From the NCBI GenBank assembly GCA_964447415.1, contig CAYUSN010000001.1:185727-249726 (forward strand): 64,000 nt of DNA, written 5' to 3'. A program made the position numbers and the translations under genes. Shown piece after piece: positions 13,544 through 15,365 of the stretch. Each line of letters starts with the position of its first letter. Position 1 is the first letter of the stretch. The notes under the pieces are model-generated. The model saw nothing but the letters and a program-made list of their open reading frames with translations, was not told where the DNA came from and ran no database searches. This stretch comes from an uncultured Candidatus Saccharibacteria bacterium. GTDB taxonomy: Bacteria > Patescibacteriota > Minisyncoccia > Phycocordibacterales > EsbW-18.

Positions 13544-15196
13544 AGAGTTTGATCCTAGCTCAGGATGAACGCTGGCGGCGTGGATAAGGCATGCAAGTCA
13601 AGGGGCTCAGCACCCAGTGCGCACATTACACTTTGTAATTGTTCATTGAGTGCTGAGCACCGGCAAACGGGGTAGTAACGGGTGGGAACGTACCTAGAAG
13701 TCAGGAATAACTTGTCGAAAGACAAGCTAATACCTGATAGTCCCTTCGGGGTAAAGATTTATCGCTTCTAGAACGGCCTGCCTCGTATCAGCTAGTTGGT
13801 AAGGTAACGGCTTACCAAGGCTATGACGCGTAGGGGAGGTGAGAGCCTGACCCCCACCACTGGAACTGCGATACTGTCCAGACACCTACGGGTGGCTGCA
13901 GTCGAGAATCTTCCGCAATGCACGAAAGTGTGACGGAGCGACGCCGCGTGATTGATGAAGTCCTTCGGGACGTAAAGATCTTTTATGAGGGAAGAAGTTA
14001 TTGACGGTACCTCATGAATAAGGGGCTGCTAATCTCGTGCCAGCAGCAGCGGTAATACGAGAGCCCCGAGCGTTATCCGGAATTATTGGGCGTAAAGGGT
14101 GTGTAGGTGGTTGTATTAGTCTTGTGTCAAAGCCTGTTGCCTAACAACAGAATCGCACGGGAAACGGTACAACTGAGAGGGTGCAAGAGGTGTACGGAAC
14201 TCATGGTGTAGGGGTGAAATCCGTTGATATCATGGGGAACGCCAAAAGCGAAGGCAGTACACTGGTGCATACCTGACACTGAAACACGAAAGCGTGGGTA
14301 GCGAATGGGATTAGATACCCCAGTAGTCCACGCCCTAAACGATGACAACTAGCTTTTTGGAGTATCGACCCTCTAAGAGGCGAAGCTAACGCGTTAAGTT
14401 GTCCGCCTGGGTAGTACGGCCGCAAGGCTAAAACTCAAAGGAATAGACGGGGGCTCGCACAAGCGGTGGATCGTGTGGTTTAATTCGACGCTAAACGAAG
14501 AACCTCACCGAGGCTAGACATCCAGACGAATCATTTAGGAAACTAGATGAGCCTTCGGGCGGCTGGACAGGTGATGCATGGCTGTCGTCAGTTCGTGGCT
14601 TGAGCTGTTCCCTTAAGTGGGGTAACGAACGCAACCCCTATTGTCTGTTACAAGTGTCAGACAAGACTGCCCTGCACCAAGTTCGCAAGGAACTTGGAAA
14701 CTCGAAACTCGAAATACGAATCTCGAAACAAATTCGAAATCAGAAATTCTAATGTTTTAAACATTCGGATTTCGAAATTAGATATTGTTTCGGATTTCGA
14801 TATTCGGATTTCGGATTTCCAAACAACTTTGTTGGTTTGGTGCAGGGAGGAGGGTGGGGATGACGCCAAGTCAGCATGTCCCTCTGATGCCTCGGGCTAC
14901 ACACGCGATACAATGGACGGTACAACGGGAAGCGACGGAGCAATCCTGAGCCAATCCTAAGAAAGCCGTCCTCAGTTCGGATTGAGGTCTGCAACTCGAC
15001 CTCATGAAGTTGGAATCGCTAGTAATCGTGGGTCAGAATACCACGGTGAATACGTTCTCGAGCCTTGTACTCACCGCCCGCCAAGTCAAAAGAGTCGGGA
15101 ATACCCGAAGTTCCCATTTATTGGGACCGAAGGTAAGTTCGATAATTAGGGTTAAGGCGTAACAAGGCACGGCTAGCGGAAGCTGGTCGTGGATTT
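13544..15196 (+). rRNA. rrs: 16S ribosomal RNA gene (divergent, with ~175-nt expansion segment); 3' boundary uncertain
   Basis: 5' AGAGTTTGATCCTAGCTCAG; conserved blocks GTGCCAGCAGCAGCGGTAATAC, ATTAGATACCC, GCACAAGCGGTGGATCGTGTGGTTTAATTCGA, TGTACTCACCGCCCG, GTAACAAGGCACGG; after helix-45 equivalent the sequence reads GGAT-TTAGTC rather than GGATCACCTCCTT; no 23S/5S follows in the window. Confidence 0.85.
14672..14848 (+). repeat. Expansion segment inside 16S rRNA: long imperfect hairpin built from degenerate CGAAA(T/C)TCGAAA / TTTCGGATTTCG repeats, closed by ctgcaccaa...ttggtgcag
   Basis: Replaces the short hairpin corresponding to E. coli ~1160-1175 (between GACTGCC and GGAGGAGGGTGGGGATGACG); left and right halves are reverse complements allowing G-U pairs. 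Confidence 0.7.
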
Positions 15197-15365
15197 AGTC
15201 AAATGACAATCGGTATTTGTCTCTCAAGGACAATACTCTAGGCGGTCGATATCGTGCACTGCAATTGAGTGCATGATGGATGCGGCACAGCATCCTTAAA
15301 ACCGTGCCGGGCATCCGGGAAAGACCGGAAAAATGAGCAGAACAAAAGAAAGAACGTGATATAAA

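Follow-up and report, generated by a model that had tools for sequence, protein, structure and literature searches.

The disappearance of the anti-Shine-Dalgarno (anti-SD) motif from the 3' end of 16S ribosomal RNA (rRNA) has been described repeatedly in reduced bacterial genomes, among them Carsonella, Mycoplasma, Blattabacterium, Chryseobacterium and others (Lim 2012; PMC6107228; PMC7782861). Closer to the present case, the accessible text of Tsurumaki 2022 (RNA 28:1041, PMC9297842) reports that only 48% of Parcubacteria had a detectable anti-SD motif, and that the lineages without it overlap the group without uL1. Here we describe the 16S rRNA gene of an uncultured Candidatus Saccharibacteria bacterium, carried on a 64,000-nucleotide stretch of DNA (the window; assembly GCA_964447415.1, contig CAYUSN010000001.1, positions 185,727 to 249,726). 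The gene resembles those of the anti-SD-less Parcubacteria in belonging to a lineage of the candidate phyla radiation (CPR), in the absence of CCUCCU from its 3' end and in carrying this absence as a lineage-level trait; the annotated open reading frames (ORFs) of the window include no ribosomal protein gene. It also resembles the reduced genomes, in that CCUCC is missing from the tail that follows helix 45 and most genes are without a Shine-Dalgarno (SD) sequence. The core finding is already published, and the window is a further example of a known loss. As far as its accessible text goes, however, Tsurumaki 2022 scores motif presence or absence only, with no account of a replacement tail, a decay series, a trailer or SD usage, and the small-genome sample of Nikolaeva 2020 (PMC7782861) left out the CPR, to which our lineage belongs. 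Our literature search found no description of such a decay series, of a covarying trailer or of an anti-SD-less 16S rRNA alongside an SD-led gene class.

Three further comparisons frame the locus. Amin 2018 (PMC6107228) reported that organisms without an anti-SD are also without the SD motif. The ribosomes of Bacteroidia are 'blind' to SD sequences, with the anti-SD sequestered by bS21, bS18 and bS6 according to the accessible portions of the relevant papers (Jha 2020, PMC7797042; 2026 NAR, PMC13000453). By the same portions, these bacteria resemble the situation predicted here in their largely SD-independent translation and their few strong-SD genes (rpsU in Flavobacterium), but their canonical anti-SD is present and occluded, whereas at our locus it is absent from the gene rather than sequestered. 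Mitochondrial small-subunit rRNA likewise has no anti-SD, and is accompanied by leaderless initiation and a reduced ribosomal protein set. Unlike it, the window's 16S rRNA is of bacterial size and has all the main helices, and a leaderless architecture is suggested at only about a fifth of the starts of genes of known function. The mitochondrial parallel drawn in the accessible text of Tsurumaki 2022 (PMC9297842) concerns ribosomal-protein losses only.

The 16S rRNA gene occupies positions 13537-15204 of the plus strand and matches RF00177 over its full length (model positions 1-1533; 1366.7 bits against a gathering score of 50). In a covariance-model alignment of its 3' minor domain, helix 45 is intact, with a compensatory C20:G33 to G:C change among relatives, and the conserved body stops at GGAU (15191-15194), 3' of which UUAGUCAAAUGACAAUCG stands in place of the canonical CACCUCCUU. 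The 3' end GGAUUUAGUCAAAU (15191-15204) aligns with the consensus GGAUcACCUCCUUu with zero gaps, such that GAUUUAGUCAAAU lies opposite GAUcACCUCCUUu where RF00177 has its conserved anti-SD tail. The window tail (UUAGUCAAAUGACA) instead holds a small self-complementary core, GUC-AAAU-GAC (15198-15207), a minimum-free-energy fold being among the evidence considered for this segment. From 14853 to 15439 the plus strand has no copy of CCTCC. The two nearest sites, 14846 and 14849, belong to the minus strand, and the next plus-strand site, 15439, lies beyond the terminator, inside a minus-strand gene. An earlier note on this DNA, which had proposed a covariance-model check of the 3' minor domain, had reported that the canonical anti-SD tail was missing and that no CCTCC occurs before a terminator at ~15366, and the gap-free alignment and the CCTCC search bear out both observations.

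To place this tail among its relatives, one representative genome per species (185,579 species) was scanned with a pattern anchored on the unusual AAGGCG upstream of helix 45. Seven Patescibacteria metagenome-assembled genomes (MAGs) from other assemblies and studies (L003, L007, L009, L025, L026, L040 and L042) all read GGAU-UU[A/U]GUCAAAUGACA. Metagenome contigs L110, L140 and L166 carry the same tail, bringing the related contigs to ten, and the consensus of these window-type tails is GAUUU[A/U]GUC[A/C]AAUGACA. Because the tails of other CPR and archaeal AAGGCG matches begin with (C/U)ACCU, mostly CACCUCC or CACCUC, the search pattern did not itself force non-canonical tails. The MAGs that share the window's tail are labelled Candidatus Campbellbacteria, Candidatus Paceibacterota, Patescibacteria group and, in three cases, Candidatus Saccharibacteria. 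The window's own 16S rRNA gene has insertions and is unlinked from 23S, with no match to large-subunit rRNA in the 64 kb or at the loci of L003, L007, L009, L025 and L042, and the window encodes a DUF5667 protein.

A wider metagenome scan for 16S tails reading GAUUU instead of GAUCA returned at least 120 contigs (L051-L170). Among the metagenome and genome matches, at least 86 contigs have the clade-type helix 45 and enough downstream sequence, and all of these carry non-canonical GAUUU tails, with at least 61 distinct 28-nt tails between them. The tails match the canonical GAU-CACCUCCUU position for position and keep U1537 and C1538 throughout, while the remnant of the anti-SD is graded from UCUCCU through AUCCUU, UUCC and UUC to GUC. 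Members of this series include GAU-UUUCUCCU, GAU-UUUAUCCUU, GAU-UUAUUCC, GAU-UUAUUC and GAU-UUAGUC; at greater length they read GAU-UUUCUCCUAGUAAGGA, -UUUCUCCUUUUAUGGAG, -UUUAUCCUUUUAAGGAU, -UUAUUCCAAACGGAA, -UUAUUCAAGUGAA, -UUAUUUCAAAUUGAA and -UUAGUCAAAUGAC, the last being that of the window. This graded, collinear series indicates that the tail decayed in place and was not displaced by an insertion. Anti-SD loss has been inherited across an entire lineage, probably within the Parcubacteria. Contigs from several independent assemblies continue past the 16S rRNA gene into unique flanks, which argues for a single copy.

The body of the gene departs from the usual bacterial sequence at several further positions. 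All nine window-type 16S genes that extend far enough upstream to be checked, the window included, have C:G in place of the U1406·U1495 pair of the decoding centre (window positions 15080 and 15157); the carriers include L003, L009, L025, L026, L040, L042 and L166, and the pair is U:U in the remaining anti-SD-less clade. We take U1406·U1495 to be part of the aminoglycoside-binding pocket, and its replacement by C:G might change drug sensitivity. In the pseudoknot of the 530 loop, C526 is replaced by A (window 14048) and matched by G505 to U, giving U505:A526. The universal 515F primer site (14037-14055) reads GTGCCAGCAGCAGCGGTAA, and standard primers would under-amplify this organism given the altered site. 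In helix 40, an insertion of ~175 nt (14672-14846) takes the place of a short hairpin and forms a long AT-rich inverted repeat of CGAAA/UUUCG-type units closed by CCUGCACC/GGUGCAGG. Among relatives the 16S is 1498-1651 nt long, which implies that this insertion is variable. A second, smaller insertion of 36 nt lies near 13611-13650.

Downstream of the tail, the window and eight relatives with a full trailer share one collinear structured trailer of ~140 nt, composed of four hairpins (P1 to P4), a conserved junction and the 3' strand of a processing stem (Table 1). The junction core, GGUCG(A/G/U)U or GGCGAU, recurs 3' of P1 in most of the anti-SD-less clade contigs. Between the 3' strand and the 5' leader, pairing extends over 24 positions and includes one mismatch, and relatives with a full trailer have terminator-like stem-loops followed by U-runs at the same place as the window's terminator. 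In an alignment of eight sequences, P2 is 100% paired with six of nine pairs changed on both sides, and three of the five P4 pairs show compensatory changes. The hand-drawn closing helix of the junction was excluded from these pair counts, as its MAFFT columns are offset between sequences. None of 500 shuffles reaches the observed covariation score, and when the partners are slid against each other pairing falls from 91% to 24-48%; the fold has a z-score of -5.3. Between species the trailer is 79-85% identical at aligned positions, compared with 86-97% for the aligned 3' part of the 16S (226-500 nt). Rfam searches of the trailer at relaxed thresholds returned terminator-like noise only and no known RNA family. 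Leader-trailer stems of this kind are cleaved by RNase III in other bacteria. Collectively, covariation, leader pairing and terminator suggest that the 16S rRNA forms a transcription unit of its own and has an elaborate trailer that is functional and may act as a processing signal only or may stay on the ribosome; either reading fits.

Two observations on the trailer stand apart from this argument. The apical part of P2 is palindromic, and CUCAAUUGAG becomes CUCGAUCGAG in some sister lineages (L054 and L086, compared with window-type trailers), a change that could represent either a stem extension (CUC/GAG with a 4-nt loop) or a self-complementary kissing-site loop. Pairing of the tail with the 5' leader was also considered and rejected, as leader variation in L009 and L040 is not accompanied by corresponding changes of the tail.

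The genes of the window fall into two classes with respect to SD usage. Those of known function, including FtsH, RecG, Alr, MurC, RsmI, MurB, SecA, Obg, GatB, GAPDH, transketolase and a glycosyltransferase cluster of ~18 kb, have a GC content at third codon positions (GC3) of 0.45-0.62 and no SD. A wrongly chosen start cannot explain the missing SD, as Pfam fixes the N-termini of SecA, Obg, GatB, MurC and a GT2 enzyme, none of which is preceded by one. A TANNNT box ends 5-10 nt upstream of 7 of 35 known-function starts, compared with 1.75 expected (P=0.0025), a pattern that suggests leaderless transcripts at some of these starts (~1/5). In the sister group G3, though not in the group to which the window belongs, TATAA, TAATA and ATAAT rank first before ATG.

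The second class comprises about 13-16 mostly small, GC3-rich ORFan ORFs dispersed through the window, with GC3 mostly of 0.71-0.93 (0.61-0.64 for 1440-1655 and 56392-57006) and no Pfam match that passes the curated cut-off. A clear -35 box of the TTGACA (sigma-70) type precedes at least five of them, accompanied in three of these by a -10 box close to TATAAT. Their leaders are about 25-45 nt long and mostly place AAGGAGG, GGAGG or AGGAG 4-7 nt before the ATG. These ORFs look like 'moron'-style independent units set between housekeeping genes. When every 5-mer was scored for an ATG 4-9 nt later opening an ORF of at least 60 codons, GGAGG ranked first of 1024 (16 of 136 compared with a 3% background, p=3.7e-6) and AGGAG second. 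SD 5-mers are top-ranked in relatives too: in six window-type relatives the leading 5-mers are AAGGA (p=5e-8) and AGGAG (p=1e-5), in the wider window-type set AAGGA has p=3e-8, and the sister group with UUCAAAUUGAA tails has AGGAG in first place (p=7e-12). The GC3 of SD-bearing ORFs exceeds the contig median in four of five tail groups (by 0.11 in the window-type group, p=5e-6). The SD 5-mer rankings make the clade an exception to the rule of Amin 2018 (PMC6107228). The same enrichment run as a control on CPR loci with canonical tails was uninformative, probably owing to the few protein genes around rRNA there.

Several lines of evidence suggest that the SD-class genes are real, inherited and lineage-restricted. 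The ORF at 9782-10270 has an orthologue in L040 with 62% identity and the same upstream hairpin and AAGGAGG. In an FG-GAP family spanning the window, L003 and L025 (31-43% protein identity), four of five copies have GGAGAAAGGA upstream and the fifth has GGAGAAACGGGAGG. Independent gene calls in Logan assemblies agree with ours, and the same gene cluster was assembled in SRR14787577 and SRR14787579. One ORFan has three homologues among 5.8 billion proteins, one of them identical. The contrast drawn in the earlier note between housekeeping genes mostly without an SD and GC-rich ORFans with strong GGAGG sites thus holds up against the 5-mer ranking, the GC3 contrast and the Pfam-fixed starts. A phage origin of the SD-led ORFans was considered and set aside, viral-contig scans having returned no relatives.

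We consider it very likely that these observations reflect a native, lineage-wide loss of the anti-SD accompanied by mostly SD-independent initiation. Under this model, the canonical GAUCACCUCCUU would have decayed in place to GAUUUAGUCAAAUGACA and become a fixed trait of the lineage. The 16S rRNA would be transcribed alone, as leader, 16S, structured trailer and terminator, with leader and trailer paired. Most genes would be translated without SD-anti-SD pairing, through leaderless mRNAs at the heads of operons and coupling within them, and in about half of the clade's tail types, the window's included, the remnant would pair with its complement 3-7 nt downstream. Several points weigh against this model. 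A minority of genes keep canonical, correctly spaced AAGGAGG sites that are both enriched and conserved, and such sites are unexpected without an anti-SD under the rule of Amin 2018 (PMC6107228). In addition, the self-complementary hairpin is missing from some tail types, such as UUAUUUCAAAUUACG, the mature 3' end of the 16S rRNA is a prediction from sequence, and the window samples 64 kb of a genome that could hold a second rRNA gene elsewhere.

The remnant's complement raises the possibility that the degenerate tail is a short 3'-terminal hairpin kept in the mature ribosome, where a built-in mimic of the SD-anti-SD duplex would fill the site of the SD helix. The Watson-Crick complement of the N-U-C triplet occurs 3-7 nt downstream in 14 of 27 distinct tails, compared with 3.5 in shuffles (none of 2000 reaching the observed count), and a 4-mer complement occurs at the same distance in seven tails, compared with 0.97. 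The pairs counted include GUC:GAC, UUC:GAA, UUCC:GGAA and AUCC:GGAU, with CUCC:GGAG and UCCU:AGGA added from folds, and for several tails RNAfold predicts a hairpin with an energy of -3 to -5 kcal/mol. On this account, UCUCCU-AGUA-AGGA and CUCC-UUUUAU-GGAG look like intermediate stages, with the anti-SD initially masked inside the RNA that carries it. However, the shuffle test is inflated by relatedness among the sequences, many tails have no stable fold, some have no 3' complement at all, and the 3-bp core, which does not vary within the group of the window itself, gives no covariation signal there. The pairing could also work in the precursor alone, as a processing signal. We therefore regard a retained terminal hairpin as doubtful, although it deserves consideration; a universal tail hairpin, which was also entertained, is unsupported, many tails being unfolded and some lacking the 3' complement.

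Alternatively, anti-SD function may persist unseen, in a second 16S rRNA gene, in a retained 3' extension that exposes pyrimidines, or in another RNA or protein that recognises GGAGG. This would explain why one gene class keeps canonical SD sites, with SD 5-mers ranking first before ATG in the window, its window-type relatives and the UUCAAAUUGAA group, and with the SD and 5' untranslated region conserved in orthologues at 31-62% protein identity; the trailer, too, is under strong constraint. However, neither CCUCC nor CUCCU is conserved in the leaders, tails or trailers of the two SD-enriched groups, and in the window there is no plus-strand CACCUCCUU-like site outside coding sequence and no complement of the tail elsewhere. 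Furthermore, contigs read through a single 16S locus, and the AAGGAGG consensus suits the canonical anti-SD (...GGAUCACCUCC) rather than AUCCUU. We judge a hidden anti-SD to be quite improbable. An RNA acting in trans, whether docking on the tail or carrying CACCUCCUU, was likewise rejected, given the lack of a complement and of a suitable plus-strand site in the window.

The coexistence of an anti-SD-less 16S rRNA with an SD-led gene class is unexplained. One tentative and, in our estimate, unlikely reading is that the anti-SD-less ribosomes themselves serve the conserved SD-led genes in a two-tier system of translation, in which the SD marks a separate regulon. The SD would then work without the 16S 3' tail, or the trailer or tail hairpin would stay on the ribosome for initiation.

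A 3' intervening sequence or intron between GGAU and a downstream anti-SD exon, whose splicing would restore GGAUCACCUCCUU, was one of two options left by the earlier note, the other being a lost or altered anti-SD. Insertions are frequent in the rRNA genes of the CPR, such as the ~175-nt one in helix 40 here, and UCCUUAAAA (15293-15301) faintly resembles a canonical 3' end. However, CCUCC is absent up to the terminator here and no such motif is conserved in relatives, the trailer is collinear between species and ends in the leader-pairing strand and the terminator, UCCUU is not conserved, and the tail is positionally homologous to the canonical one. Furthermore, no 16S-like sequence occurs 3' of 15204 up to the terminator, so that conserved rRNA does not flank the supposed intron on both sides. 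These data make splicing very improbable, and of the two options it is the loss, backed by the positional homology of the tail and the decay series, that stands. The hairpin (15278-15295), the nearest resemblance to an anti-SD (CAGCATCCTTAAAA, 15288-15301) and the terminator (15364-15398) all lie at the places given in that note, but the resemblance does not survive as an anti-SD, being part of the unconserved P3 strand. The P3 3' strand AUCCUUAAAA was itself considered as a displaced anti-SD and rejected, since it is not conserved in L007, L009, L042 and L140, its counterparts being UCCUACGAAA in L009 and L042 and GCCUAAUCU in L007 and L140, and the AAGGAGG consensus does not fit it. Finally, that the tail is an assembly or sequencing artefact, or belongs to a decaying pseudogene, with the canonical CACCUCCUU expected at 15195-15203, is barely credible: nothing specific favours it beyond the generic worry over metagenome assemblies, ten further contigs, drawn from different studies, share the tail, the match of the gene to the full model reaches 1366.7 bits, and its unusual positions are compensated (C1406:G1495 and U505:A526).

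Table 1. Features of the 16S rRNA transcription unit and SD-class ORFs in the window
Feature	Position	Strand	Remarks
Processing stem, 5' leader strand CACAUUUUUUCUUUUGUUCUGCUC	13485-13508	+	UUUUUUCUUUUGUUCUGCUC common to L009 and L040; L042 ...GUUCCGUUC
Helix 45, CACGGCUAGC / GGAA loop / GCUGGUCGUG	15168-15191	+	intact; 10 of 10 pairs standard; lineage-specific sequence
Degenerate 3' tail GAUUUAGUCAAAUGACAAUCG	15192-15212	+	at the position of GAUCACCUCCUU
Trailer hairpin P1	15213-15236	+	sequence and length variable among relatives; from alignments and fold
Junction UCUAGGCGGUCGAU	15237-15250	+	conserved
Trailer hairpin P2	15251-15277	+	9 bp (15251-15259 with 15269-15277); 9-nt loop UGCAAUUGA (relatives: CUCAAUUGA)
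Trailer hairpin P3 GGATGCGGCACAGCATCC	15278-15295	+	GGAUGC-GGCACA-GCAUCC; then UUAAAA, to 15301
Trailer hairpin P4	15314-15329	+	UCCGG-GAAAGA-CCGGA; conserved loop
Processing stem, 3' strand GAGCAGAACAAAAGAAAGAACGUG	15335-15358	+	pairs with 13485-13508; conserved in relatives
Intrinsic terminator	15364-15398	+	15-bp stem, 11 G-C pairs; closes the stand-alone 16S unit
SD-class ORF	488-1330	-	
SD-class ORF	2800-3060	+	
SD-class ORF	9782-10270	-	
SD-class ORF	12777-13007	+	
SD-class ORF	16773-17024	+	
SD-class ORF	17021-17272	+	
SD-class ORF	17531-18790	-	weaker AAAGGAAG 10 nt upstream
SD-class ORF	20280-20657	+	
SD-class ORF	22188-22871	+	
SD-class ORF	25297-25557	+	
SD-class ORF	26360-26668	+	
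SD-class ORF	56392-57006	+	lower GC3, 0.61
SD-class ORF	56997-57563	+	
SD-class ORF	59281-59562	-	

In most relatives whose contigs extend downstream, the 16S rRNA gene is followed by lineage-variable small genes and then by tRNA-Ile(GAU) and tRNA-Leu(CAG), with the two tRNAs lying 1-3.5 kb downstream; in L007 both are on the opposite strand in reversed order. In the window, tRNA-Leu(CAG) (within 18966-19051) ends at 19048 and the ATG of the alanine racemase gene starts at 19049, so that 3' processing of the tRNA would leave a leaderless alr mRNA. L025 does not keep this adjacency, the two being about 400 nt apart there. The window also encodes a tRNA-Ile with the anticodon UAU on the minus strand (7352-7424), a species that is rare in bacteria, in which a lysidine-modified CAU is usual. 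The longest-ORF start of a neighbouring 399-aa gene falls inside this tRNA and is probably wrong. A one-piece transfer-messenger RNA is found at 2321-2704 on the plus strand.

The ~18 kb cluster at 29951-48411 contains glycosyltransferases, methyltransferases, a flippase-like protein and a Wzy-like ligase, has a GC content of 0.44-0.49 across 36-48 kb compared with 0.49-0.57 elsewhere, and is probably a surface-glycan island. Within it, a near-identical motif, GCGTTTCYTAWCTCTAACGGG-ATG, lies upstream of two glycan-related genes (34775-34803 and 46130-46158), a glycosyltransferase starting at 34801 and an O-antigen-ligase/TPR protein at 46156, and may be a shared promoter or regulatory site.

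To the known absence of the anti-SD, this locus adds what appears to be a gradual, in-place decay of the 16S tail throughout a large environmental clade, coupled to a structured trailer of unusual conservation. In these genomes, start placement by gene callers that score ribosome-binding sites will differ between the two gene classes. If the SD-led ORFans are really translated, these organisms would provide a natural test of the role of the SD without an rRNA partner, a situation otherwise approached only with engineered E. coli ribosomes.

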